A stretch of 64,000 bases of DNA from an uncultured Bacteroidales bacterium (GTDB lineage Bacteria > Bacteroidota > Bacteroidia > Bacteroidales > UBA932): positions 6,741 through 70,740 of the forward strand of contig CANPZS010000005.1 in the NCBI GenBank assembly GCA_947588835.1. The letters are read 5' to 3'. A model generated the notes under the pieces. That model did not search any database. It was not told the origin of the DNA and saw only the letters and a list, made by a program, of their open reading frames with translations. A program made the translations under genes and the position numbers. Of the stretch, positions 1 to 13,484 are shown piece after piece. Within the stretch, counting starts at the first letter, position 1. Every line of letters starts with the position of its first letter.

Positions 1-593
1 TGGCATCTATACTGTTTTAAATAATTAATATGTTCTGCTGTAATCAGTGTTGCATTTGTGGTGAAATCTGCTATAAGCTCAATATCTTTTTCTGCGCAGA
101 ACTCCCTGGCATAATCAAGCAACTGTTTGATCCCGTCAAAACAAAGAAAAGGTTCCCCTCCAAAGAATCCTAACTTTAGTGTTGAAAAAGGAGTATTTAT
201 ATAATGCAGAAATATATTTCTTTTAATTGCGTCAACAACTCTCTGTTCCAGTCTGCTTCCTACAATTTTATTTTCATAGCAATACCAACAATTTAGATTA
301 CAATCAAGAGACGTATTTACAACAACATTGTAAAGATCGGTACCCTCTACCATTTTTTCTTTTTGGACAAGTACATATTGATACTCATCAAAGTCATCTG
401 CAATAAGAAATTTACCTAATGTTAATTTACTGAATAACTCTTTATTTAGTGTCTCTAATTTTTCTATCTCACATTGGGAATACAAATCATGACATCTTTC
501 ATCAAGCAATAGAAAAGTATTACTTAATGCATTATAATGAAGATAATAACCTTGCGCTATTTCTTCACAAAATTGATATCTTGAAATCTTCAT
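1..593 (-). CDS. Radical SAM peptide maturase (SPASM/twitch type likely); 5' part only, runs off the window start; not in the ORF track
   Basis: Manual translation from ATG at 593: MKISRYQFCEEIAQGYYLHYNALSNTFLLLD...VVNTSLDCNLNCWYCYE...LGFFGGEPFL...DFTTNATLI. Contains the CxxxCxxC motif (nt 279-302), GGEP and TTNG-like motifs. Frame is open to base 1. Confidence 0.92.
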   Translation of the reverse strand, partial: MKISRYQFCEEIAQGYYLHYNALSNTFLLLDERCHDLYSQCEIEKLETLNKELFSKLTLGKFLIADDFDEYQYVLVQKEKMVEGTDLYNVVVNTSLDCNLNCWYCYENKIVGSRLEQRVVDAIKRNIFLHYINTPFSTLKLGFFGGEPFLCFDGIKQLLDYAREFCAEKDIELIADFTTNATLITAEHINYLKQYRC

Positions 594-607
594 AATAAAC
601 TTTAAAG

Positions 608-637
608 GAGCGTTGCTCCTAATATTGAGCAACGCTC
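608..637 (-). other. Perfect 11-bp stem hairpin between precursor and rSAM gene (attenuating terminator or mRNA stabiliser)
   Basis: GAGCGTTGCTC (608-618) and GAGCAACGCTC (627-637), 8-nt loop; followed on the minus strand by CTTT. Confidence 0.6.
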
Positions 638-648
638 GAAGATCTGAA

Positions 649-918
649 TTACGGTTGATCAGGTTTACTTACCACGCCCGGATCAATTGCACCGCAATAT
701 CCTGAAGCATTGTTGATCCCATTACAACGGCCTGAACCATTGTTGATCGTACCACAAGACCCACCGCCATTGTTCACACCACTACAAGTGCCATTGCCAT
801 TGTTTGTTGCTTCTTCATCAAGACCTGCGTTGCCTCCAACAACGAGAAGCATCTCGCTCTCCTGCATGACTTCCACAATCTGAAGCGGAAGATCCATCAA
901 CTTAGAAGAGTTTTTCAT
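649..918 (-). CDS. GG-leader RiPP precursor peptide with four 10-aa NNGxGxC repeats
   Basis: Leader ends MQESEMLLVVGG. Core is TNNGNGTCSG/VNNGGGSCGT/INNGSGRCNG/INNASGYCGA-ID. Lies 55 nt upstream of a co-oriented rSAM gene. Confidence 0.88.
   Translation of the reverse strand: MKNSSKLMDLPLQIVEVMQESEMLLVVGGNAGLDEEATNNGNGTCSGVNNGGGSCGTINNGSGRCNGINNASGYCGAIDPGVVSKPDQP
688..807 (-). repeat. Four degenerate 30-bp tandem repeats encoding the precursor core
   Basis: CATTGTT recurs on the + strand at 708, 738, 768 and 798 (30-nt period). Confidence 0.9.
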
Positions 919-1327
919 AAATACATTTAATTAAGTTTTCGCCTCTTATTAACGCAATTCGGCATCTGCGACATCTTTATACTGATATGTTCAGTTATAG
1001 TTTATTACCATATTATATAAATCATTTATAGCAGTATATAGTGCATAATAAGCATCGCCGGCAAAATATGAAAAAATTTTTTATTATAAAAATAAAAACC
1101 CTCTAATTATTTGATTTCATTTCCATTTTTGATATGCCGTCATCCGGAAAAATGGATTGCAGATCCAATGGTTACGAAATATCATTAATTATTAACAACA
1201 ACTTAATTGCAACATTTTTATTCCATAATGGCAGTCATTCAAACTCCGTACAACCTTTTTCAAGAAAAGTATGATTTTTAAAAAATTACACTAAAGTGTA
1301 ATTTGATTAATGTAAAAATTATTTATT

Positions 1328-1358
1328 TTTGTCACTGTGGTTGAGTTAATTATATTTG
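1328..1358 (+). promoter_or_regulatory. Bacteroidetes primary-sigma promoter for the right arm of the RiPP locus
   Basis: TTTG (1328-1331), 19-nt spacer, TATATTTG (1351-1358); matches the TTTG-N19-21-TAnnTTTG consensus. Confidence 0.7.
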
Positions 1359-1384
1359 AAGATATTAGAAAACGGCCGATACAC

Positions 1385-1398
1385 GCATAAATTTATGC
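1385..1398. promoter_or_regulatory. Perfect 14-bp palindrome, candidate operator
   Basis: GCATAAATTTATGC, located between the promoter and the ATG at 1424. Confidence 0.4.
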
Positions 1399-1423
1399 CA
1401 ATATTAATTTAAAAACTAAAACA

Positions 1424-1660
1424 ATGAAAAAGTACTCATTTTTAGCATTTGACATGCTGCGAAAGGAAGAGATTGCTTCCATTAAAGGAGGTAAAGCCAG
1501 TGACGTTAAGAAGTGTGGTTGCACCTGTGTGGGCCCACTTACGCCTATGCAGGTGGGCATTAACGCAGTAGATCGTGAAACCGATTCTTCGGATGAAGAA
1601 TGCAACGATTGTGGAGCTACTAATGCGCATCGCGCAACAAACGGACTTATACAACAATAA
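1424..1660 (+). CDS. GG-Bacteroidales family RiPP precursor (TIGR04149-like)
   Basis: Leader LRKEEIASIKGG, followed by CGCTC (CxCxC) and CNDCGATN; cognate rSAM and pseudo-rSAM genes lie downstream. Confidence 0.85.
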   Translation: MKKYSFLAFDMLRKEEIASIKGGKASDVKKCGCTCVGPLTPMQVGINAVDRETDSSDEECNDCGATNAHRATNGLIQQ

Positions 1661-1672
1661 AGCAAGTTTAAA

Positions 1673-4027
1673 ATGGCTGCCCGTCTGAAAATATTGTGCA
1701 TTGCCGCACTCTTGTCACTGTCCGTGACCGTCAACGCACAGGTGACTGACGGGCAGCTTGACTCAGTCATCAGGAACCTCAACCTGAAGGAAGTCGTCGT
1801 GACGGCAAAGAAAATCAAACAGGCCGGCGACACGATATCCTATTCGGCCGCCACCTACGCGGACAAAAACGACAAGACGCTTGAAGACCTGCTTCGCAAG
1901 ATGCCGGGAATCGAAGTCATGTCCGATGGACAGATCACCTACAACGGCCAGTGGATAAACGAGTTCTATATCGAAGGCCTCGACATGCTCGGCAGCAATT
2001 ACGGCGTGGCCACAAAAAATATAGACGTCCGCGACATAGGCTCCGTCCAGGTGCTCCAGAACCATCAGGACGTGAAGCTGCTCCAAGGAGTGAAAAACGG
2101 CGGCGCCCCGGCCATGAACATCAAACTGAAGAAAAACGCCCTCGGCATCTGGTCGTCCACGCTTCAGGCGGCGTTAGGAAGCCAGCCGCATCCGGCCTGG
2201 GACGCCTCCGCCGCCCTGATGAATTTCCGGCGCACGGCCCAGAACATCTCCGTCTACAAGACCAACAACATCGGCAATCCCCTGCGTCAGGATGTAAACG
2301 CCACGGCCACATTCAGTTCATCGTTCGGCACCGGACTTCTCTTTCCCGATTCCCCGGGCCTTGACGACAGGTACGCATACCGCAACAATTCACACAGCCT
2401 GTCGGTCAATCAGCTTTTCAAACTGGACGAGGACAAGACATTGTCCTTCAATCTGAATTATTTCTTCGACAAAGAAAAACGGGATGCGGCCGAGCAGACC
2501 TCCTACCTTGCCGACAGCCTGTCGCGGTATGTGGTGGATGAATCCGACCGGACCGACATGCGGCAGCATTTCGTGGGGACGCACGCCGTCTACAAGCTGA
2601 ACGGACGGAAACGCTATCTTAAGAACACCTTCGCGGCAAGCGCCTCTTTCCCTAACGGAAGCGGCACGGTCAACGATCTGATACGCCAGCGCTTCTCAGG
2701 GCATTCCATCAATGTCGACGACGTGCTGAAAATAAATTACAAAACGGCGAAGAACGGCATCGGCGAAACGGCCCTCCATGTCAGCTACAATGACAGACAA
2801 GGAACGCTGGACATAGACGGCCGCGGAACGTCGCAGACGGTTGGCAGGCGCAATCTCATCGCCGACGGTTCCGTCCATGTCGCGGCTGCGGCCGTGCCGC
2901 ATTTCATGTTCAACCTCAACTGCGACCTCGACGCCCGGTGGCAGCAGGCCGAGACCGCTTCGGACATGTCAGGAGTCCCCGAATCCGGGAGCCAGAGCAT
3001 CTGGCGCGCAGGTGCGCACATAACCCCGAAATTCCTTCTGCATTTCGGACAACGGTTCCAATGGCTCATTTACATACCCGCCGGCTTCGTATATTATGCT
3101 TCCGCCAACGGATCCTGGGAATACGACAGAACGTTCTTTTCCTTAAGGCCATATACCAATATTACGCTCAAGCCTTCGGACCGCCTGTCCTTCTCGCTGA
3201 CGTCGACCTGCGAGGAATCCATGCCCGACCCGCTTTCGCTCATGGTACAGCGGCGATACACCGACTACCGCACCGCGGTCTCCAATCCCTACCGTCTTGA
3301 AGCCAACATCGACAGGACGGTGAAGACGTCTTTGAACGCAAGCTACACAAACGTGCTGGACATGATCTTCGGAGGCCTGACCCTCACACACGTCTACTCG
3401 CGCAACAGCATCTCCGACGGGTACCGGATAACCGGCGATGTCATCGACTACGTACGGCTGCCCTATGCCACGGGCGTCAATATATGGCAGGGCGACCAGA
3501 CCTTTTCCAAAGGCTTTTTCAAATGGACTGCCAAGATAAGCGAATCGTTCTGCGTCGGTACGAGCCAAAGTGAATTTTACGTCGACGGCGCCATGCACAG
3601 GGGACGGAGCGACTATCTGCGTGCGACGGTCGCCTTCAACGCCGCCTTCGCCAGCTGGATCGCCTTTGACGCTTCAAACCGCTTCTCGCTGTCCAGAACG
3701 TTCACCGACGGAACCTCCAACGGAGGGGCGAAGCACACCTTCTCCAATACGGCCTCTCTCGTGCTTTGGCCTTGCAGGCGGCTCAGCATCAAGCCGTCCG
3801 CGATGTTCTATTACAACGACTATTCAACGAGCTACAGGAGCAACGTCTTCCTCAACTGCGACATGGAATACACCACAGGAAACCTCATTCTGTATCTCCA
3901 ATGCAGCAATCTACTGGACAGCAAAGTCTTCCGCAGCTTCAACGACAACGGAATCATACAACGCTCAAGCCAGTACATGCTCCGCGGACGGACCGTCCTG
4001 TTCGGGGTAAGGTTCAGAATTACATGA
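1673..4027 (+). CDS. Outer-membrane beta-barrel protein with TonB-dependent-receptor-like plug
   Basis: Signal peptide; LKEVVVTA; EDLLRKMPGIEV...FYIEGLD plug-like segment; amphipathic beta C-terminus (VLFGVRFRIT). Confidence 0.75.
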   Translation: MAARLKILCIAALLSLSVTVNAQVTDGQLDSVIRNLNLKEVVVTAKKIKQAGDTISYSAATYADKNDKTLEDLLRKMPGIEVMSDGQITYNGQWINEFYIEGLDMLGSNYGVATKNIDVRDIGSVQVLQNHQDVKLLQGVKNGGAPAMNIKLKKNALGIWSSTLQAALGSQPHPAWDASAALMNFRRTAQNISVYKTNNIGNPLRQDVNATATFSSSFGTGLLFPDSPGLDDRYAYRNNSHSLSVNQLFKLDEDKTLSFNLNYFFDKEKRDAAEQTSYLADSLSRYVVDESDRTDMRQHFVGTHAVYKLNGRKRYLKNTFAASASFPNGSGTVNDLIRQRFSGHSINVDDVLKINYKTAKNGIGETALHVSYNDRQGTLDIDGRGTSQTVGRRNLIADGSVHVAAAAVPHFMFNLNCDLDARWQQAETASDMSGVPESGSQSIWRAGAHITPKFLLHFGQRFQWLIYIPAGFVYYASANGSWEYDRTFFSLRPYTNITLKPSDRLSFSLTSTCEESMPDPLSLMVQRRYTDYRTAVSNPYRLEANIDRTVKTSLNASYTNVLDMIFGGLTLTHVYSRNSISDGYRITGDVIDYVRLPYATGVNIWQGDQTFSKGFFKWTAKISESFCVGTSQSEFYVDGAMHRGRSDYLRATVAFNAAFASWIAFDASNRFSLSRTFTDGTSNGGAKHTFSNTASLVLWPCRRLSIKPSAMFYYNDYSTSYRSNVFLNCDMEYTTGNLILYLQCSNLLDSKVFRSFNDNGIIQRSSQYMLRGRTVLFGVRFRIT

Positions 4028-4060
4028 CATTAAAATATATCAACCAAAAACATCATAGAT

Positions 4061-4936
4061 ATGAAAAAGACTCTTATTGCATTGGCGGCCGCCATGATGC
4101 TCACATGCGCAAACGCATATTCCCAGATCACCGTGTCCTACGCGATGGATACTCCCTCGTTCACTCTTGCCCATGAAGACACCGACAGATATCAGACGCT
4201 CGACACCTGTTATCTCACGATTACCTATCGGTTCAGGTACAAGGCCACAGAAAAAGACGACTCCCTCAGCCGCGAAGACCTTCTGGACCTCCAGCTCGGA
4301 CGAAGGTACAACGCCTTCTTCAGCCGCAATCTCCGTGAACTCGACATCCAGAACACAAAAGACTTCAAGACCACTATGCAGTTTACGCCCGTCCCCAGCG
4401 ATTATGTCGGCTTCGACCTCCTCATCAGCCACGGCGATTCCACGACGGCCGTCACCAACCGTATCCCCTACACTACACAGGTGATCGAATATAAAGAACA
4501 TACTCCCCTCCCGGCGTGGACATACGTTCCCGAAGAAATCGACACGGTGATGGGCTACCCCTGCCATGTCGCAAAATGCGATTACGGGGGCAGGGAATGG
4601 AAAGCCTGTTACACCAACGACATCCCGCTGCCGTACGGACCGTGGAAACTCAACGGAGTCAAGGGTCTGGTCCTCAAAGCCGAGGATGCCGGACATGAGT
4701 TCGTATTCGAAGCCGAAGGCCTCACCCAGAATCCGCAGCCGATAATCCGCTACGACTGGAACAGAAAGACCATGGACAAAGACGAATGGGCACGGTTCGA
4801 GCGCGATATGTACAAAAACGCCGGAGCGTTCGTCCGCAACACCGGCGCCCGCATCCTTATCATGGACAATAGCGAAAAAGGCTTCCATGTCTTGAACGAG
4901 GCCTGGTCGGAATATTATAATCCCTTAGAAAAATAA
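4061..4936 (+). CDS. GLPGLI family protein
   Basis: Signal peptide; YPCHVAKCDYGGREWKACYTNDIPLPYGPWKLNGVKGLVL matches the GLPGLI C-terminal signature. Confidence 0.85.
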   Translation: MKKTLIALAAAMMLTCANAYSQITVSYAMDTPSFTLAHEDTDRYQTLDTCYLTITYRFRYKATEKDDSLSREDLLDLQLGRRYNAFFSRNLRELDIQNTKDFKTTMQFTPVPSDYVGFDLLISHGDSTTAVTNRIPYTTQVIEYKEHTPLPAWTYVPEEIDTVMGYPCHVAKCDYGGREWKACYTNDIPLPYGPWKLNGVKGLVLKAEDAGHEFVFEAEGLTQNPQPIIRYDWNRKTMDKDEWARFERDMYKNAGAFVRNTGARILIMDNSEKGFHVLNEAWSEYYNPLEK

Positions 4937-4937
4937 T

Positions 4938-6344
4938 ATGGAAACAATATCGGCGGCGTCAGGCAATAATTATATATATGAACAAAGGACGGGGTATGTT
5001 TCCCTCGTCCCAAACTCGTATGTGTCCCACGGGAATCATTCTTCATATTATTCAGAAAAAATTAAATATTTAAAGCATTTTGGACTTATTTCGGCAGATT
5101 CGGAACCGGAATACAGACTATTAGAAAAACAAGATATTGAAGACGCCCTGATTAATACACATCAAATAATACTCGAAGTAACGGATAAATGTAACCTTGA
5201 TTGTTATTATTGTGGTTATGGGCACTTCTACGATAATTATAATGCCAGAGAGAATATAGATATGTCATTTGATGTTTTTAAGACATTGTATGATCATCTT
5301 AATAAAATTTGGGAAAGCAATAATAACAAAGGGTGTACGTATCTGCGTATTTCTTTTTATGGAGGAGAACCGTTGTGTAATTTTTCATTTATAAAGGAGG
5401 CTGTCGATTATACGAAACACAATCCTATTAAAAATAAAAGGATTGTTTTCTCAATGACGACAAATGCGGTTCTTTTGGATCGATACATGGAATTTCTTGT
5501 GGCCAACAATTTTGAGATTCTTATTAGTCTTGACGGAAACAAGTTCAACGATTCGTATAGGGTCTTTAAAAATGGTAAAAGTTCTTTTGATACAGTTATC
5601 GCAAATATTGATAAGCTTTATAGCTCTTATCCATCTTTTTTTGCGCGGAACGTGAAATTTAACAGTGTATTACATAATCGTAACTCGGTAAAGGATACAA
5701 ACTCTTTCATCTTTACAAGATATCAAAAATATCCAATGACAAATGAATTAAATGTTTTTGGGATTGCCAAGTCAAAACGTTCTGATTTCTTAAAGATATT
5801 TCACTCTAAAACAAAAGATTTTTCATTAATGACCGAAGATGAAAAAAAAGAGTATGAAAATCAATCTCCATTTATGTATCAATATAAGAGGTGGGCATTT
5901 AATACTCTTATGAAAACCTATTCCACAAATCTTTTAAATGCTCTGTCAGAGGATTATGTAAGTCCAAAAACTTCTATTAATCTCAAATTGCCGACCAAAA
6001 CATGCATACCTTTCTCACGGAAAATTTTTGTTTCTGTTAATGGCGATTTGTTTCCTTGTGAAAGAATTGGCAATGAATTTGATTTTGGGAGAATATATGA
6101 CGGTAAAGTTGAGATACATTTTGACAAGATAATAAGCCAATATAATCAATTGTTTGCAAAGTATACAAATATCTGCAATGGCTGCAAGGCTAAAGATTTT
6201 TGTTCTGTATGCATTGTGTCTGATATTAATGGATATGAGATTTGCAGCCGAACTAAACCTCGGAATATAGCAGAATTTATCTCGTTTTCTGAGATACACC
6301 CCGACATCCTTAAAAAAATCATCAAAACCGTATCAATTATTTAA
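4938..6344 (+). CDS. Radical SAM/SPASM peptide maturase, GG-Bacteroidales family (TIGR04148-like)
   Basis: CNLDCYYCGYG, FYGGEP, MTTNAVL, ISLDG; C-terminal CIPF...PCER...CNGC...CSVC auxiliary-cluster cysteines. Confidence 0.92.
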   Translation: METISAASGNNYIYEQRTGYVSLVPNSYVSHGNHSSYYSEKIKYLKHFGLISADSEPEYRLLEKQDIEDALINTHQIILEVTDKCNLDCYYCGYGHFYDNYNARENIDMSFDVFKTLYDHLNKIWESNNNKGCTYLRISFYGGEPLCNFSFIKEAVDYTKHNPIKNKRIVFSMTTNAVLLDRYMEFLVANNFEILISLDGNKFNDSYRVFKNGKSSFDTVIANIDKLYSSYPSFFARNVKFNSVLHNRNSVKDTNSFIFTRYQKYPMTNELNVFGIAKSKRSDFLKIFHSKTKDFSLMTEDEKKEYENQSPFMYQYKRWAFNTLMKTYSTNLLNALSEDYVSPKTSINLKLPTKTCIPFSRKIFVSVNGDLFPCERIGNEFDFGRIYDGKVEIHFDKIISQYNQLFAKYTNICNGCKAKDFCSVCIVSDINGYEICSRTKPRNIAEFISFSEIHPDILKKIIKTVSII

Positions 6345-6346
6345 TT

Positions 6347-7555
6347 ATGGGAGAATCGCTTTATTTCTACTTAGAACCTTATGTGTATGTAAAGAAGGGT
6401 GAAAAAGAACTGCTTATTGTCAATTTGCTTGATGATAAAGCAATTATATTTAAAGATTCCGCGTCAATTAAAATAGGGAATCTCTTGCTGTCATCACAAT
6501 ATAGAACGATAAAGATTACAGAAAACGACAAAAATATTCCCATAGTAATTAATGCTATAAAAAACTATATGGGGGACATCGTCTCTGCTATGGCACAGCC
6601 ACTGCAGTTTGATTCCGAGATTAATAATCTTTCAGGCATTGAGGCCTACAGAAAGGCTACTGTCTACTCCAAATACAACATCGGGGGATTCATCTCTAAT
6701 TGTACCATGTTTGTGGATATGAAAAACCAAGATAGCTATGACTATATTAAATTCATAACAGGAATTGAATCAACTCCTGAAAATGCTATTTATAATGCTT
6801 CTTTCAAAATGAATGAGGAAGATATAGACTATTACATTCAAGAACTGATTAAAATCAATCCCAACATTATACTAAATATCTGTGGTGTTAATCAGCATCT
6901 TTTTGATTATATTTCAAGTAATTATCCATCCACCATACTTAATCTTGTTATTTCATTACGGACTCTGCAATTATATCCCGACATACTTAATCGTATCAAG
7001 AAGAAAAAATTAAGATATACATTATTATTAGATTTATCTCATGACAATTATAATTGCTACATAAACGATGAACTATGTTCTATTTATGTCAAAGTCACGA
7101 ATGACAAAGATCTTTATAATGCTTATAATCTATCAGAAACAGGTTGTCAGGTTAAATTATGCCCTATCTTAACTTCGAAAAATAAAGATTTTATAAAATC
7201 TTTATTTTCAATATCGTACAAAGAATTGTTAAATATTAAAAATAAATATAGAACAATTAAAATTAACAACTTAATAAACAGTAATTTTTGGGGTAATATA
7301 TATCTTTTTCCGCAAGGAAAGGTTCGCTATTCATTGGGTTGCGGTCAATTAATTGAATTCCATCAACTTTATGAGAAGTACAAAAATGATTTTCTAAATG
7401 GCTCCTTTGAATGGACTTTTATTAGAAATTTCTCGAACTGCAGCACTTGTATATTTCAATATCTTTGTCCTTCGCCAAATTATATTGAAACACATCTAAG
7501 GGAGAAAAACCTAATCAAATGTTTAATATCCAAAGATGCAAAAGTTTCCTCATAA
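6347..7555 (+). CDS. Pseudo-rSAM protein (TIGR04150-like)
   Basis: YFYLEPYVYV N-terminus; no CxxxCxxC; retains C-terminal CSTCIFQYLCPSP; 2 nt after the rSAM gene. Confidence 0.8.
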   Translation: MGESLYFYLEPYVYVKKGEKELLIVNLLDDKAIIFKDSASIKIGNLLLSSQYRTIKITENDKNIPIVINAIKNYMGDIVSAMAQPLQFDSEINNLSGIEAYRKATVYSKYNIGGFISNCTMFVDMKNQDSYDYIKFITGIESTPENAIYNASFKMNEEDIDYYIQELIKINPNIILNICGVNQHLFDYISSNYPSTILNLVISLRTLQLYPDILNRIKKKKLRYTLLLDLSHDNYNCYINDELCSIYVKVTNDKDLYNAYNLSETGCQVKLCPILTSKNKDFIKSLFSISYKELLNIKNKYRTIKINNLINSNFWGNIYLFPQGKVRYSLGCGQLIEFHQLYEKYKNDFLNGSFEWTFIRNFSNCSTCIFQYLCPSPNYIETHLREKNLIKCLISKDAKVSS

Positions 7556-7689
7556 GGAAATTTCATTAATTACGTTTCTGGCCGATACCGGCAAATATGG
7601 CATCATACTCGACCACTAAGCCATCGCTGACATGGAACAATTTTTGTACTTTTACTATCGGACCAATCAATCTTTAACAAGGCAAAATT

Positions 7690-8091
7690 ATGAATAAATA
7701 TTGCTTCAAGGCAGTTCTTCTGCTTATTGGTATTTCTTCGTTAGCGGCATCTTGCACGAAAACAATTGTGGAAGACAATCCGGACTGGTGGACTTTCTCT
7801 ATAGAAAATCTATTGGACGAAAATGTTATCATCAGTGGGAGCGTCAATGAGAATCAGTTTTCCATAACGCTGTCTCCGAAAGAATCTTATTCTTATACTC
7901 AAGATATAAGGAGCGGTTCTATAGAGAATGGGAAAACAGCTATCTTTTTAGCGGCTTCAATAAAATTAACTGGAACAGCTGCAGGAACTGTAGAGTATCA
8001 GACGACAGCGGATTTTAAAAAGAAGTGGACAGAAGAAGATGAACATCAATTGGTATTCAAGATTAACGGTTCTCTTTTCCAAACCGAATGA
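7690..8091 (+). CDS. Lipoprotein of unknown function
   Basis: Lipobox LAASC after a basic/hydrophobic N-terminus; overlaps the next gene by 4 nt. Confidence 0.75.
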   Translation: MNKYCFKAVLLLIGISSLAASCTKTIVEDNPDWWTFSIENLLDENVIISGSVNENQFSITLSPKESYSYTQDIRSGSIENGKTAIFLAASIKLTGTAAGTVEYQTTADFKKKWTEEDEHQLVFKINGSLFQTE

Positions 8092-10217
8092 TTTACAAAA
8101 TTCGTGAAAAATTCGTTGTCCTTATCGTTTTATGTACGGCAAATCAACTGTCCGCACAAAGCGCCGACAGTCTTGATGTCGTTGATACATTGGACAATAG
8201 TATCATGACTCTGGATGAAGTCGTCGTTTCCGCGCCTTTAATCAGCCAGAACAAATACGGGAGCACCTATCTGATTACCGAGAGTCTGAGGGAAAAGGTC
8301 AGTTCTCCCGTTCAGATGTTGAATTACATTGACGGCGTGATATACAATGAGATTGACAATTCCGTCAAAGTCAGGACTGATTCGCGGGTGCTGCTGTCGG
8401 TCGACGGGATTGAGCGGGATCTCAATTACATTATGAGCCTGCCTCCTGCGCGTATAGCGAAAATAGAAATAAAGAACATACCCGAAGCGAAATATATCGC
8501 GGAAGGATATAAATATGTCATCAATTATAAATTGAAGAACGATTGGATCGGGCACTATTTATATGTGCAGAATTATGATATGCTGTCACCCGGCAACAAC
8601 GGGAAAAATGTCGTCGCGAATGAGCAGCCACGGATACAATACATGTTTACCGACAAGAAAATGGATTTTCATATAGGATATGGATTTGCGGACATTCATT
8701 GGAATTATCCCATATCATACGAAAAATCTTATTTCAACAAGATTGATGCCGCCTCCATCGAGGCCGGGCCAAAGAATCCTAACGACAATAACACAAATAT
8801 CGCACACAATCTTGCCGCCGGGATAGATTATCATATTTCACCCGGTCATACGATAGTGTGGAAAGCGAACTGGTTAAATTCCGATGCCGATCATATTGCA
8901 TCATATAATCGGCATGATGAACTTTCAGGCGGAACGTCATACGGCGAAACACAGCAGGACAAGTCCGATGATGAGGATTTCAGCACATCGCTCATATATA
9001 GAGGAATTATAAACGATAAGTGGACTTTATATTCGGCCGTCGGCTATAATTACATAGGACAGAGCACATTGAACAAATATGAGCAACTCGGCGGAGATAG
9101 CGGATATATTAGTGTGAGCAGATATGACAATCGGAAGAATTATGTACGGGGCGAAGCCGACGCGACATACAATGTCAATGACCGGCTGAGCTTCAATGCC
9201 GGCTACATAGGGACATGGAACGAATATCTCTCAAGACCGCTGAATTCTGATGGCGGGACATCACGGATCAATGAGAATCGGCAGCATGCGTATGCATATC
9301 TTGATTATTCTCCTGCTCCAAATGCGTTGCTTCACATGGGCGTGGGAGCCGAACGCATCAACAATGTCAGTAAATCATGGTATTGGCTTCCGCAAATGAC
9401 GTTCAGCTATGTCTTTTCGGAGAGCTCCCAATTGACGGTGGATTATTCGTCAAAGATAATATATCCAAAGATGTATCAGATTATTAAAACATCTTACGAT
9501 ATAGATGAGCATGTCGTTTTTAACGGGAATCCGGAATTGTCTCCTTCACGGGTCCATTCATTGTCCGTTCAAGGAACAGTCAAAGACAACCTTCTGGTGG
9601 GGGCGTCATACAACTATACCGACAATTATATAGCGGACTTATATACGGCCGACTCCGATAAAATAATAAAAAAATTTACAAATGCCGACAATCATTATTT
9701 CACAGGCTATATGGCCTATGATTGGAACATCACGGACAACATCTCATGGAGCAACATTGCGCAGGTCAGCTTTGAAGCCATATCCAATAATACATACAGG
9801 AAACAGTTCTACAACTTCTCGTTCAACAGCCAATTCAATTATTGGATAGACCCGATAAAGATGCAGACCTCCGTATCCTGGCAGCGCAATATGATAAAGG
9901 AACCTCTTCTTCAAGGCTGGAACAACATAGGACAGGATTATTGGATGCTGTCGCTGCAAAAAGGGTTTTGGAAGGACCGTATATATGCATCAATATCGTA
10001 TCTTCCTCCGATACATTTGGGAGTAAGGCCATTTCAATACAATGTCGTGGAAACCGACTTTTACAGACAGACCGTCAAACAAAACCTGAGGACGTATGAC
10101 AATATGGTCATGATCAGAATTCATTTCCGTTTATCTTCCGGCAGACAAAGGTCGTCAGACAGAGTTCCGGATTTCGAATTTGAAAATGAAGGGAAGAAAG
10201 ATAAAGGATTGCTTTAA
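8088..10217 (+). CDS. Outer-membrane beta-barrel family protein (plug + barrel)
   Basis: Signal peptide; LDEVVVSAP; LLSVDGIER...IAKIEI...VINYKLK plug-like region; FNGNPELSPS; beta-rich C-terminus. Confidence 0.75.
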   Translation: MIYKIREKFVVLIVLCTANQLSAQSADSLDVVDTLDNSIMTLDEVVVSAPLISQNKYGSTYLITESLREKVSSPVQMLNYIDGVIYNEIDNSVKVRTDSRVLLSVDGIERDLNYIMSLPPARIAKIEIKNIPEAKYIAEGYKYVINYKLKNDWIGHYLYVQNYDMLSPGNNGKNVVANEQPRIQYMFTDKKMDFHIGYGFADIHWNYPISYEKSYFNKIDAASIEAGPKNPNDNNTNIAHNLAAGIDYHISPGHTIVWKANWLNSDADHIASYNRHDELSGGTSYGETQQDKSDDEDFSTSLIYRGIINDKWTLYSAVGYNYIGQSTLNKYEQLGGDSGYISVSRYDNRKNYVRGEADATYNVNDRLSFNAGYIGTWNEYLSRPLNSDGGTSRINENRQHAYAYLDYSPAPNALLHMGVGAERINNVSKSWYWLPQMTFSYVFSESSQLTVDYSSKIIYPKMYQIIKTSYDIDEHVVFNGNPELSPSRVHSLSVQGTVKDNLLVGASYNYTDNYIADLYTADSDKIIKKFTNADNHYFTGYMAYDWNITDNISWSNIAQVSFEAISNNTYRKQFYNFSFNSQFNYWIDPIKMQTSVSWQRNMIKEPLLQGWNNIGQDYWMLSLQKGFWKDRIYASISYLPPIHLGVRPFQYNVVETDFYRQTVKQNLRTYDNMVMIRIHFRLSSGRQRSSDRVPDFEFENEGKKDKGLL

Positions 10218-10251
10218 TCCAAATTGTTTAACCATTTAATATTTTAGCAAC

Positions 10252-10434
10252 ATGTCAACAAAGACTAATGAAAGACTTGATTTTCTCTCAGAAGCAGAGC
10301 AAGTCAAAGTAATGGGTGGCACTTCAGAGACATCATCTCTAGAGAGCGAAATTTTTATCTATATTGTAAAAAATTGCGGGTGGAAAGATTGTAAGAAAAT
10401 TTGTACAATCAATCCTATACCGTTTGATCGTTAA
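10252..10434 (+). CDS. Third GG-leader peptide (Ser/Thr-rich linker, 3-Cys core)
   Basis: Leader LSEAEQVKVMGG fits the double-Gly consensus; core TSETSSLESEIFIYIVKNCGWKDCKKICTINPIPFDR; AT-rich 5' leader. Confidence 0.7.
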   Translation: MSTKTNERLDFLSEAEQVKVMGGTSETSSLESEIFIYIVKNCGWKDCKKICTINPIPFDR

Positions 10435-10480
10435 ATCAAACATTGGGCACGCATTGTGTAACTCATAGTAATTAACGATG

Positions 10481-10541
10481 AGGGATGCTTACTATAGAGA
10501 TGTATTGACAATTGCTCTCTTTTAAGCATTCCTTTTATTTT
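10481..10541 (+). terminator. Probable intrinsic terminator between convergent units
   Basis: AGGGATGCTTA (10481-10491) pairs with TAAGCATTCCT (10523-10533), followed by TTTATTTT. Confidence 0.5.
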
Positions 10542-10563
10542 GATAGAGGAGATAAAATAAATT

Positions 10564-11058
10564 CTAATGCCGTCCGCCAAACATTTTTCGCAAGATATTG
10601 CTTGATGATTGGACTATCAGAAAGTCCATGCTTTGATGTTCCGCCGTTTTCAGTTCATCAGTATTGAAACGGCATAGCGCTTCCTGTTGCCCTAAAGTAT
10701 CCCTGATGGAAGACAAGTGCAGCAGTGTTCCATCTATTGTACCACCGGCGGACTGCAGTCTGATCGTCAGGCCCTCGGCATCGTCTGGCCGTTTGTTTTC
10801 GAATTTGAGCAGGATTGTAGTTTCCGTGCTGTCCGACATATTGTCCGATCGTACGGCATGGATGATCGCTGTCCCCGGACATACTTGTTTGTACGGCAAA
10901 AAATAAGCTACGACGAATAGACAGGCCAGTACTGCCCCTATGACGGTTATTCCGTAACGGACAAGCGAAGAAGGGATCTGTCCCACTATACTGCGCACCT
11001 TTTCGCTGCGTAGTTCGAAAGTATGATCATTTTTATTCGTCATGTTTTCTTTCCCCAT
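10564..11058 (-). CDS. Short HlyD/membrane-fusion-protein-like accessory protein (about 164 aa)
   Basis: FELRSEKVRSIVGQIPSSLVRYGITVI plus a TM helix, typical of the Bacteroidetes HlyD N-terminus; no long coiled coil; ATG 1 nt after the ABC transporter stop. Confidence 0.7.
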   Translation of the reverse strand: MGKENMTNKNDHTFELRSEKVRSIVGQIPSSLVRYGITVIGAVLACLFVVAYFLPYKQVCPGTAIIHAVRSDNMSDSTETTILLKFENKRPDDAEGLTIRLQSAGGTIDGTLLHLSSIRDTLGQQEALCRFNTDELKTAEHQSMDFLIVQSSSNILRKMFGGRH

Positions 11059-11059
11059 A

Positions 11060-13273
11060 TCAATTTCCAAGTTCAAGCTGATTCCTTACCAATGCATAAT
11101 ATTTTCCTTTCTTCGCCGTCAGTTCTTCGTGCGTGCCTGTTTCAACGATTTTTCCTTTATCCAAAACCACAATCTGATCGGCATTTCGGACGGTCGAAAG
11201 ACGATGCGCAACTATGACAACGGTTTTTCCTATATAGAAATCAGACAGGTTTTCGGTGATGATCCGTTCATTGCCGGCGTCAAGAGCATTGGTGGCCTCG
11301 TCCAGAAATACGAACATCGGGTTCTTGTACACCACGCGGGCTATCAGTATTCGCTGCCTCTGCCCCTGACTTATGCCCTGTCCATCCTGACCTATTATAG
11401 TATTGTAACCTAACGGAAGATCTTCTATATAATCGGCAATATTCGCAATGCGTGCGGCATAACGTATTCGTTCGATGTCGGGTTCATCATCGGACACGGC
11501 GATATTGCGGGCGATAGTGTCGGAGAAGAGATATCCTTCCTGCATAACGGCTCCGCATTGATTTCTCCACCAACTTAGATTGTATTCGTTCAGATTGCCG
11601 TCTCCGACCCGTATGCAGCCGCACGATGGTTCATAGAATCCCAGAAGCAATTTGACAAGGGTGGTCTTTCCGCTCCCGCTTGCACCTACGATTGCAGTTA
11701 CTTTCCCGTTGGGGATATATAGGTTGATGTCGGAAAGTACATCCTGCGGGCTATAGAGATCGTATTTGAAGCAAAGTCCTCCGATATTGATCGAGTGTCC
11801 CTTGGACGTATCCTCGGTATAACTATTGCGTGTCCTGCCGTCGTTTTCCTCGTCGGTTTCAGTATGTATCTCGTTCATGCGGTCAAGGCTGATGCTTACA
11901 TCTTGCCAAGAGTAAATGAACCGGATCAGCTGCTCCACGGGGCCGTTGAGTTGTCCGATAATGTATTGCACCGCCAGCATCATGCCCAATGTCATGTCGC
12001 CGTGTATCACAGCCGTAGCCGCAAGGACGGTAATAAGAATGTTTTTAACTTCATTGATGGTGATGCTGCCCGCCTGTTGTATCTGCTGCAGGTTGAGAGA
12101 CTGGAGATTGACTTTGAAGAGGTCAGCCTGCACATCCTCCCATTCCCAGCGTTTCCGCTGTTCGCAGCCTTGCAGTTTGATTTCCTGCATGCCATCAATA
12201 AGATGATAGGTCACATTGCGGTTCTTTCCGGCCTGTTCGAAATATTTATAGTCGAGCTGACGGCGTTTCTTGAGGAACAGAACGATCCAGCACGCATATA
12301 GCGATGTACCGATAAGGAAAATAAGGAATATAAGCGGATTGTAGACAGCCAGAACGACGCCGAACACAATAAATGTGAAAAATGAAAATAGTACGGTCAA
12401 GCTGCCTGATGTTAGGAACTGCTCCACTCGTCGGTGGTCTTCTATACGCTGCAGTAGGTCACCCATCAACTTTGTATCAAAGAATTTCATCGGCAGTTTC
12501 ATCAACTTGATGAAGAAATCGCTGATAAGTGAAATATTGATACGCGCAGATATATGAAGGAGTATTTTGGATCGGATAAACTCAATGGCGGTGCGGCTGA
12601 ATAAAAGCATCATTTCCGCCAGCAGTACCAGCCAGATAAAACTTACGTCTTTTCCGCCGATGCCCGTATCCACGATGGCCTGAGTCAGGAAAGGAAAAAC
12701 GAGCTGCAGAAGCGAGCCAAGTAAAAGACCCAATATCAGCTGAATGAAGAAACGGCTGTATTTTTTGAGATAACTCCATAAAAAACTTAGGCGGTTTTTT
12801 CCCGAATGCTGTTTATTGTCCATTTGCGAATGAAACGGTTCGGCAGGTTCAAGCAGCAGAACGATGCCTTTCTCTTCGCCGTCCGTTTGAGTGCTTGCCC
12901 AATGCTCGCAGAATTCCTCCTTGTCGTATGTCATCATTCCCTTTCCAGGGTCCGCGACATACACCGTATATCCGCCGTTACGATGTTTCCGGATTTTATG
13001 GACAACGACAAAATGATTTTGGTTCCAATGAACGATGCATGGCAATGGAGCATCGGACGTGAGTGTGACAAATGTAATTTTTCCGCCAAGGCTTTTCATT
13101 CCCATTGCCTCCGCCGCCTTGCCTATGCCTAAAAGAGAAACACCGTCTTTTCCAAGAGAACATAATTTTCTAATCTGGTTCATATCAGGCCGTTTCCCAA
13201 AAAAAGAGACGATCATTGCCAGACATGCGGCTCCACAGTCCATGGAATCAAATTGTTTTATCAGCCGTATCAT
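11060..13273 (-). CDS. Peptidase C39-containing ABC transporter (GG-leader processing and export)
   Basis: QFDSMDCGAACL (Cys), HWNQNHFVV (His), VADPG (Asp); TM domain; GASGSGKT, SQGQRQR, LDEATNALD. Start moved to ATG 13273. Confidence 0.95.
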   Translation of the reverse strand: MIRLIKQFDSMDCGAACLAMIVSFFGKRPDMNQIRKLCSLGKDGVSLLGIGKAAEAMGMKSLGGKITFVTLTSDAPLPCIVHWNQNHFVVVHKIRKHRNGGYTVYVADPGKGMMTYDKEEFCEHWASTQTDGEEKGIVLLLEPAEPFHSQMDNKQHSGKNRLSFLWSYLKKYSRFFIQLILGLLLGSLLQLVFPFLTQAIVDTGIGGKDVSFIWLVLLAEMMLLFSRTAIEFIRSKILLHISARINISLISDFFIKLMKLPMKFFDTKLMGDLLQRIEDHRRVEQFLTSGSLTVLFSFFTFIVFGVVLAVYNPLIFLIFLIGTSLYACWIVLFLKKRRQLDYKYFEQAGKNRNVTYHLIDGMQEIKLQGCEQRKRWEWEDVQADLFKVNLQSLNLQQIQQAGSITINEVKNILITVLAATAVIHGDMTLGMMLAVQYIIGQLNGPVEQLIRFIYSWQDVSISLDRMNEIHTETDEENDGRTRNSYTEDTSKGHSINIGGLCFKYDLYSPQDVLSDINLYIPNGKVTAIVGASGSGKTTLVKLLLGFYEPSCGCIRVGDGNLNEYNLSWWRNQCGAVMQEGYLFSDTIARNIAVSDDEPDIERIRYAARIANIADYIEDLPLGYNTIIGQDGQGISQGQRQRILIARVVYKNPMFVFLDEATNALDAGNERIITENLSDFYIGKTVVIVAHRLSTVRNADQIVVLDKGKIVETGTHEELTAKKGKYYALVRNQLELGN

Positions 13274-13484
13274 TCTGTAAGGTATTCTAACGTTTTTCTT
13301 CAGAACTCCGGCGGGAAAGCCATAAAAGTTCGTGGGCGGAACAAATGCAAGTGTTTTAGGCAAAATAAGATGAATTTTTTATTTTTCCAAATGTTTTAAG
13401 AAGTATTCAACAGCCATATAAAGAATTAAATTTGCTCCTGTTTCCAAAAGCCCTTATCTTAGCAGGTCATGAAAAAAGTTGTTT

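Follow-up and report, generated by a model that had tools for sequence, protein, structure and literature searches.

The 64,000-nucleotide stretch of DNA analysed here (the window; host genome G000, assembly GCA_947588835.1, contig C5, CANPZS010000005.1, positions 6741-70740) carries at its left end an island of radical S-adenosylmethionine (rSAM) genes for RiPPs (ribosomally synthesized, post-translationally modified peptides). The island is ~16.5 kb long and is interpreted, with a probability of about 0.7, as a mosaic in which pieces of three cassette types are gathered around one exporter pair, with a proposed route by which the peptides would be handled. Three features are particular to it: three modules are set on the genome's only peptidase-containing ATP-binding cassette transporter (PCAT), the third peptide is orphaned, and the G+C content (GC) is split by class of gene. 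The cluster type itself is widespread in Bacteroidales and is listed in surveys (PMC4573289, PMC10352776); the island is a real, intact member of it.

The island is a compact natural experiment in which three unrelated cores share one leader grammar and one exporter, to which are added three peptide-specific barrels and one peptide stripped of its maturase. It makes testable the recognition of leaders by the C39 domain, the roles of the barrels and of the GLPGLI protein, and the assembly of such clusters from exchangeable blocks. To our knowledge, clusters with radical-SAM, PCAT and TonB-barrel genes abound in Bacteroidales of the gut and mouth, and none has had its product, target or export route shown. 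Likewise, we know of no member of the GG-Bacteroidales rSAM family with a characterised product, and of no function for the large GLPGLI family. The features are listed below in window coordinates.

Wholly left of the window, between rSAM_A and rpsL: OMP0, outer-membrane barrel, 762 aa, with CarboxypepD_reg and OMP_b-brl_3 domains
1-593, minus strand: rSAM_A, radical-SAM/SPASM maturase, 431 aa from ATG or 444 aa from the upstream TTG at 632; cut by the window edge, with ~700 bases further left in the contig
649-918, minus strand: pepA, double-glycine (GG)-leader precursor, 89 aa (82 from the second ATG), leader ending in VMQESEMLLVVGG
919-1423, no strand: divergent intergenic region between pepA and pepB, 505 bp, with -7 boxes
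1424-1660, plus strand: pepB, TIGR04149 (GG-Bacteroidales)-type GG-leader precursor, 78 aa, leader ending in MLRKEEIASIKGG
1673-4027, plus strand: OMP1, TonB-dependent-transporter-like barrel, 784 aa (Plug 23.8 bits, cut-off 23.9)
4061-4936, plus strand: GLPGLI family protein, 291 aa, with signal peptide (TIGR01200 100.4 bits, above the cut-off of 50)
4938-6344, plus strand: rSAM_C, GG-Bacteroidales radical-SAM/SPASM maturase, 468 aa (TIGR04148)
6347-7555, plus strand: pseudo-rSAM, 402 aa, with TIGR04150 as its sole match
7690-8091, plus strand: small lipoprotein, 133 aa, with LAASC lipobox, overlapping the start of OMP2 by 4 nt
8088-10217, plus strand: OMP2, outer-membrane barrel, 709 aa, partner of pepC (PF14905, E 4.5e-16)
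10252-10434, plus strand: pepC, GG-leader peptide, 60 aa, leader ending in FLSEAEQVKVMGG, core containing NCGWKDCKKIC
10564-11043, minus strand: p170 mini-adaptor, starting at the ATG at 11043 (159 aa) or at the TTG at 11076 (170 aa), following the PCAT gene
11060-13273, minus strand: C39 peptidase-ABC exporter (PCAT), 737 aa, with Pfam domains C39, ABC_membrane and ABC_tran
13274-13478, no strand: the island's right border, with galB starting at 13479 or 13485

The insert was placed between rpsL and galB, at C5:3745-20218 (from ~3 kb left of the window to position 13478), because these two genes are neighbours, ~25 bp apart, in congener G175. Matches to the left flank stop at the region upstream of rpsL in 30 of 30 congeners, and the order at the left end of the contig is rpsJ, fusA, rpsG, rpsL, OMP0, rSAM_A, pepA. 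An earlier reading of the window, made from its letters alone (the sequence-only reading), had asked that the left flank be inspected for a second exporter or an integrase; only the rest of rSAM_A, OMP0 and rpsL-rpsG-fusA lie there. Its observation that no regulator, known immunity gene or mobility gene is present holds for the whole island. No integrase, att repeats or transfer genes of an integrative or conjugative element were found in the island or its flanks, and the two island borders showed no repeats, direct or inverted, of at least 9 bp.

The host genome is a 104-contig metagenome-assembled genome (MAG) of 2.15 Mb with 52.6% GC and 97.8% completeness. By comparison of EF-G it is nearest to rumen MAGs and Ca. 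Cryptobacteroides, and the uncultured Bacteroidales host is a gut or rumen genome. The fragmentation of the MAG, together with jumps in GC at third codon positions (GC3) between 0.30 and 0.74 at gene borders, could mean that cassettes of two strains were joined in assembly and that the compound layout, or the GC mosaic, is such a chimera. However, the same island, with the same gene order and junctions, recurs at 99.2-100% identity in six metagenome contigs that come from different samples and assemblers, and segments so unlike in composition share no long k-mers at which an assembler could switch. The agreement of these six independent contigs excludes a chimera to within a very small residual chance.

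Three modules and their single counterparts

Module A comprises pepA, rSAM_A and OMP0. Module B, the canonical GG-Bacteroidales TIGR04148/49/50 system, comprises pepB, OMP1, GLPGLI, rSAM_C and the pseudo-rSAM, and module C comprises the lipoprotein, OMP2 and pepC, its own rSAM having been lost. The sequence-only reading had pictured several peptide modules docked onto one shared export hub and had proposed comparative genomics of module presence as a check. That picture is largely supported, since each module occurs alone beside a homologous exporter (A in related loci L229-232, B in Hoylesella timonensis L073, C in L216-219, each with a PCAT). Its parts list fell short in omitting three TonB-type barrels, the GLPGLI protein and a conserved mini-adaptor, all of which are built-in parts of the cassettes.

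For module A, the DNA from 998 to -2970 is 73% identical to L229. The order in L229-232 is pepA-rSAM-barrel, followed directly by the PCAT, and the proteins there match at 68%, 80% and 75%, the 80% being the value for rSAM_A against its L229 counterpart. For module B, the order in L073 is barrel-GLPGLI-rSAM-pseudo-rSAM-PCAT-p160. The OMP1-GLPGLI DNA (1753-4935) is 72% identical to L239, where the pair lies on an integrase-bearing element without any RiPP gene and the barrel beside the GLPGLI gene is 70% identical to OMP1. A recent duplication within the host was rejected as the origin of OMP1; congeners hold only paralogs of 24-38% identity. For module C, the OMP2-pepC DNA (8105-10491) is 77.6% identical to L216 and also matches L220, and the order in L216-219 is rSAM(429 aa)-barrel-pepC-PCAT-p160.

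Across 80 related loci, the genes upstream of the PCAT are an rSAM_A-type module, with or without the barrel, or more rarely a TIGR04148-type module. Two maturases are carried by at least five of these loci; L068, L116, L126, L129 and G041/L031 are examples of two maturases beside one PCAT, and in G041 both an rSAM_A-type and a TIGR04148-type module adjoin one PCAT. Compound islands recur, but as a minority.

Peptide-maturase pairing

The three GG-leader peptides claimed in the sequence-only reading are present, and so are its two rSAM enzymes, both of which are SPASM maturases. It had left the pseudo-rSAM uncounted, and the pairing of peptides with maturases, in which pepB rather than pepC goes with TIGR04148/04150, was hidden from it. 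The rSAM_C protein matches TIGR04148 over its full length (386.5 bits, above the cut-off of 300), placing it in that family, and carries CNLDCYYC and the SPASM cysteines. Its nearest relatives in 150 same-family genomes are ~40% identical, a counterpart was not found in 8 congeners, and a search for related loci by rSAM_C alone gave no match, the closest relatives being too distant. The adjacent pseudo-rSAM matches TIGR04150 over its full length at 88.5 bits (cut-off 250) and is without the CxxxCxxC motif; a pseudo-rSAM directly follows the rSAM in all 11 of the related loci that have one.

In 12 related loci the rSAM_C/pseudo-rSAM-type pair is accompanied by GG-peptides with CxCxC, most of which lie immediately ahead of a GLPGLI gene of their own, in many cases together with an OMP1-like barrel, and peptide-to-GLPGLI pairing in relatives is near 1:1. 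Of 17 peptides gathered from the neighbourhood of TIGR04148 homologs, 16 align with pepB in leader and CxCxC core, although against TIGR04149 itself pepB reaches only 15.1 bits (E 0.016, cut-off 25). By this alignment and gene order, pepB, and not pepC, is the predicted substrate of the TIGR04148/04150 pair. Module B resembles the described GG-Bacteroidales system (TIGR04148/49/50; PMC4573289, PMC10352776) in its rSAM above cut-off, adjacent pseudo-rSAM, GG leader with CxCxC, and PCAT. It differs in that the precursor and pseudo-rSAM fall below their cut-offs, pepB has, beyond its CGCTC core, a long acidic tail containing another Cys pair, the genes for the barrel and GLPGLI lie between precursor and maturase, and the exporter is common to two other modules.

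The core of pepA consists of four 10-residue NNGxGxCxxx repeats, in which the residue at +4 from the Cys is Asn in the first three and Asp in the fourth. Homologs of pepA are 60-68% identical and have 3-4 repeats, and a 2-repeat homolog occurs in Proteiniphilum acetatigenes (L124). The rSAM_A protein has CNLNCWYC and the SPASM cysteines; it lies below every NCBIfam family cut-off, its best scores being 129 bits for TIGR04463 and 126 bits for CefB. Among known systems, PapB (freyrasin, CX3D repeats; PMC9413430) is similar in that rSAM_A is likewise an rSAM/SPASM enzyme with an N-terminal extension and pepA offers one Cys-X3-Asn/Asp per repeat. However, rSAM_A scores only 87 bits against NF047865 (cut-off 340), outside the PapB family, and the acceptor in pepA is mostly Asn. 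It also falls outside the CefA/CefB (Cys-every-fifth) type, for which 126 bits compares with a cut-off of 600 and the Cys spacing in pepA is 10 rather than 5.

The homologs of pepC are 74-81% identical and always stand in the order rSAM(429)-barrel-pepC (L216-220). No equivalent of this 429-aa rSAM was found anywhere in the host genome, and pepC is an orphan for that reason; gene order indicates that its module has probably lost the enzyme. The small lipoprotein gene sits where the 429-aa rSAM sits in intact pepC modules, homology to which begins exactly at the barrel gene (8105), and no homolog of the lipoprotein was found in L216 or L220.

The exporter pair and the shared leader

The exporter was compared with transporters of known structure. 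It matches PCAT1 (4ry2) over its full length (E 6e-101). Alignment to PCAT1 and LahT150 places Gln7, Cys13 and the catalytic His and Asp (within HFVVV and VADPGKG, respectively) in matching columns, that of the Cys being the one mutated to Ala in PCAT1 entry 7n87. With GASGSGKTT, ISQGQ, FLDEAT and AHRL also in place, it has both the transmembrane domain (TMD) and the nucleotide-binding domain (NBD) and shares the C39-TMD-NBD arrangement of PCAT1, LahT (6mpz) and ComA. The single C39 exporter with intact catalytic residues that the sequence-only reading had described at 11060-13273 (minus strand) is thus confirmed, and its C39 domain is predicted to cleave after GG. As the island PCAT is the only leader-cleaving exporter in the genome, the three peptides must rely on it.

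The only other C39 domain in the genome belongs to a stand-alone protein of ~170 aa (contig C60:7931-8485, minus strand) in which Cys is replaced by Ser and His by Tyr. Its gene lies downstream of a gene with a LuxR-type C-terminal helix-turn-helix and upstream of 4-5 CarboxypepD_reg/outer-membrane-protein barrels, and no GG peptide was found near it.

The three leaders align at GG with a hydrophobic residue at -12, Glu at -8 and a hydrophobic residue at -4, as had been noted from the letters alone for the last 12 residues. LahT150 reads positions -4, -7 and -12 in the final 13 residues of the leader and cuts a wide variety of substrates (PMC6363468). A hidden Markov model of relatives' TIGR04149 leaders missed the window's own peptides, being too short and too specific, and was replaced by a regular-expression count and a position matrix; a TIGR04149 search of the host genome gave only a chance match on contig C12. 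The matrix, trained only on 28 leaders adjoining homologous exporters in other genomes, ranked pepA 1st, pepC 13th and pepB 60th of 16,546 GG sites in the six-frame genome. The 12-residue pattern is not itself enriched (12 observed, 13.3 expected in six frames genome-wide), and 5 of the 12 occurrences pass a mechanical short-ORF (open reading frame) filter. Only three resemble genuine Cys-core precursors, and all three are inside the island. One transporter serving several unrelated cores has a precedent in LahT and Prochlorococcus ProcA (PMC6363468); for the island, such multi-substrate use is predicted from the genes.

The exporter and p170 genes are convergent with the genes from pepB to pepC. 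The p170 protein has an N-terminal cytoplasmic motif (ELRSEKVR..G..P), one transmembrane helix and a small periplasmic beta-barrel, and its structure model (predicted local distance difference test, pLDDT, 82.5) comprises the helix and a six-strand barrel without an alpha-hairpin. It is a conserved partner and not a truncated HlyD gene, because a ~160-aa homolog directly follows the PCAT in 78 of the 80 loci. Its resemblance to 440-aa HlyD_3 proteins is confined to residues 12-72 (the cytoplasmic motif and helix), and one p170 homolog matches HlyD_3 at E 0.0014, below the cut-off. The protein has no Pfam match at E<=1 and does not qualify as an HlyD-type membrane fusion protein; nothing meaningful was found when p170 and a profile of 41 homologs were compared with PDB sequences, and Foldseek on the model gave no match below E 0.02, with adaptor barrels among the weak matches. 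A 2023 survey described Bacteroidales RiPP clusters with a PCAT and an outer-membrane protein in which no membrane fusion protein was identified (PMC10352776), and p170 is a candidate for this missing component.

The PCAT is 80-83% identical to proteins of Prevotella, Hoylesella and Porphyromonas, whereas the host EF-G (L002:635-2749) is only 71-75% identical to those of Prevotellaceae and Alistipes. Although the conservation of PCAT and EF-G is not directly comparable, this difference suggests that the exporter pair has spread horizontally across Bacteroidales families.

Envelope genes and the proposed route

Each of the three peptides has an adjoining TonB-type barrel. OMP0 (PF14905, E 7e-21) is overlapped for 17 nt by the 3' end of rSAM_A, and OMP1 has a plug-like N-terminus with an EVVVTA motif. 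No match to PDB sequences was found for OMP0 or GLPGLI. The GLPGLI structure model (pLDDT 90.9) is a half barrel like that of LolA and the PNGase F-II N-domain, and Foldseek matched it to 4r4z (PNGase F-II N-domain, E 1.8e-9) and to LolA, LolB and RseB (E 2e-3 to 2e-2); the model thus points to a half-barrel fold of carrier type.

The envelope genes are set apart from the others by composition. GC3 is 0.50-0.74 in the barrels and GLPGLI and 0.28-0.41 in the rSAMs, pseudo-rSAM and peptides (rSAM_A 0.30, OMP1 0.74, pseudo-rSAM 0.29). At four-fold sites, GC is a host-like 0.64-0.78 in OMP0, OMP1, GLPGLI and OMP2 and 0.30-0.42 in both rSAMs and all three peptides; the PCAT, at 0.54, lies between the classes. 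The switches fall at gene borders, and homologous modules elsewhere are of uniform composition. Between strains that are 99.2% identical, the density of differences is 5-13 per kb in the barrels and GLPGLI and 0.7-1.7 per kb in the rSAM_C pair; a look-up of OMP0 for the background divergence of sister strains matched only the identical contig. Given the GC split and this unequal divergence, the envelope and chemistry genes seem to have different histories.

The following sequence of events is proposed. Each precursor would receive cross-links at its cysteines from the rSAM/SPASM enzyme cognate to it: pepA would probably gain four Cys-to-Asn/Asp thioethers of the PapB kind, pepB would be modified by rSAM_C together with the pseudo-rSAM, and pepC would either stay unmodified, with at most a disulfide, or be served by rSAM_A. 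The C39 domain of the single PCAT would cut all three leaders after GG, and the PCAT and the hairpin-less p170 would carry the cores through the inner membrane to the periplasm. At the outer membrane each peptide would be handled by its own TonB-type barrel, and the LolA-like GLPGLI protein may act as a peptide-specific carrier for pepB. A route from the periplasm through GLPGLI to the barrel is suggested by the carrier fold, by arrays of ORFs with Sec signals elsewhere in the genome and by the hairpin-less adaptor.

In its most general form, the proposal is of a modular two-step secretion of peptides across the outer membrane that is distinct from TolC, with entry through the PCAT and mini-adaptor or through Sec, a dedicated GLPGLI carrier and TonB-type barrel for each peptide, and envelope and chemistry halves that can be exchanged separately. 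Such exchange would account for the host-like GC of the envelope genes and the AT-rich maturase and precursor genes. Taken as a whole, this generalisation is considered rather unlikely.

Several observations weigh against the interpretation of the island as a working three-peptide mosaic with this route. The adaptor role of p170 is drawn from its position, N-terminal match and weak fold matches; the split in GC between envelope and maturase genes does not fit a simple docking history; and pepC has no cognate maturase in the genome. Leader position -7 is hydrophobic in pepA and pepB and Gln in pepC, and OMP2 is frameshifted in sister strains L235 and L237, where it is truncated to 583 aa. With its Gln -7 leader, missing maturase and OMP2 frameshifts, module C may be decaying. 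TonB-dependent transporters normally import. In a Lepagella-like genome, homologs of the OMP1-GLPGLI pair come after BlaI and an M56 protease bearing a TonB C-terminal (TonB_C) domain, without RiPP genes; sensing or uptake would suit this context no less than export.

The points that concern module C could mean that only modules A and B function and that the OMP2-pepC block is a remnant, nearing loss after recombination removed its rSAM. Intact pepC modules always have the 429-aa rSAM just upstream of the barrel, where the island has the lipoprotein gene, and OMP2, besides its frameshifts, has the highest density of differences between strains (11-13 per kb). The frameshift in L235 was mapped to a 1-nt deletion at 9698, and L235-L237 carry 1-nt and 6-nt (TATATA) insertions near the OMP2 5' end (8105-8135). 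However, neither pepC nor OMP2 is disrupted in the window or in the contigs that match it at 100%; among sister strains pepC varies at only 0-1 positions, its leader ranks high in the genome, and a disulfide peptide without modification could be exported all the same, as happens with bacteroidetocins. A remnant is considered somewhat unlikely, and a mosaic of three peptides is preferred.

A different role for the barrels was also weighed, in which, with GLPGLI or the lipoprotein, they would be receptors for re-uptake or sensing, as MbnT is for the re-uptake of methanobactin or as in a trans-envelope signalling system, and the peptides would be signals or metal carriers rather than toxins. The plug-like N-termini with EVVVTA, the Cys-rich cores, the lack of an immunity gene within the island and the 59-77% identity of the OMP1-GLPGLI homologs beside BlaI and M56-TonB_C are all consistent with this, and it is a possible reading, held with less than even confidence. 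In single modules, however, the gene for the barrel stands in translational coupling between those for maturase and exporter (17-nt overlap, 4-nt gap), and small peptides with Sec signals ahead of GLPGLI genes elsewhere in the genome would enter the periplasm from inside the cell. The mini-adaptor also has no hairpin with which to reach a TolC-type duct, which would make another exit necessary. Outward transfer (two-step secretion) is slightly favoured over re-uptake or sensing.

Two known export systems were compared with the island. In Myxococcus xanthus, PopC is secreted through the TonB-dependent transporter Oar (PMC6434023). The island is similar in that its cargo would first be in the periplasm and its partner is a TonB-dependent-transporter-like barrel, OMP0 also having a CarboxypepD_reg N-domain; it differs in that the predicted cargo is small peptides rather than a protease. 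Export of colicin V and class II microcins (CvaB-CvaA-TolC) likewise pairs a GG-leader peptide with a PCAT in a Gram-negative cell, but the island adaptor is without hairpin and lipoyl parts, and per-peptide barrels would stand in for the common TolC. Compared with PCAT and AMS (ABC-transporter maturation and secretion) systems in general, the island has a Gram-negative host, a ~160-aa partner with a transmembrane helix and beta-barrel instead of a 400-450-aa HlyD/CvaA adaptor, and no TolC-type gene within its locus.

The Sec-signal ORFs (57-73 aa) are at C10:21054-21275, C10:22244-22465 and C62:3255-3428, all on the plus strand. Each has two Cys and a common S-C-G-[ED]-T-x-Y motif and lies just upstream of a GLPGLI gene, and the GLPGLI arrays behind them end in a TonB-type barrel, without rSAM or PCAT. 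In the island, sister strains differ most in the intergenic region that separates pepA from pepB (24-26 differences per kb), which carries two Bacteroidetes-type -7 boxes (TAnnTTTG) on the pepB side, at 1324 and 1351.

Two sets of neighbouring genes were seen beside single modules in other genomes. In L229-L232 (positions 2684-6477), genes of the PRTRC system (PRTRC_E, Prok_Ub, Prok-E2_D and ThiF), with a topoisomerase, lie upstream and adjoin the pepA-type module, which is a typical context for cargo of Bacteroidales conjugative elements. In L216-L219 (positions 3017-6099), a MACPF-domain protein (557 aa) and an unannotated protein of 468 aa lie beside the pepC modules, which hints that the pepC cassette travels with a BSAP-like pore-forming toxin gene.

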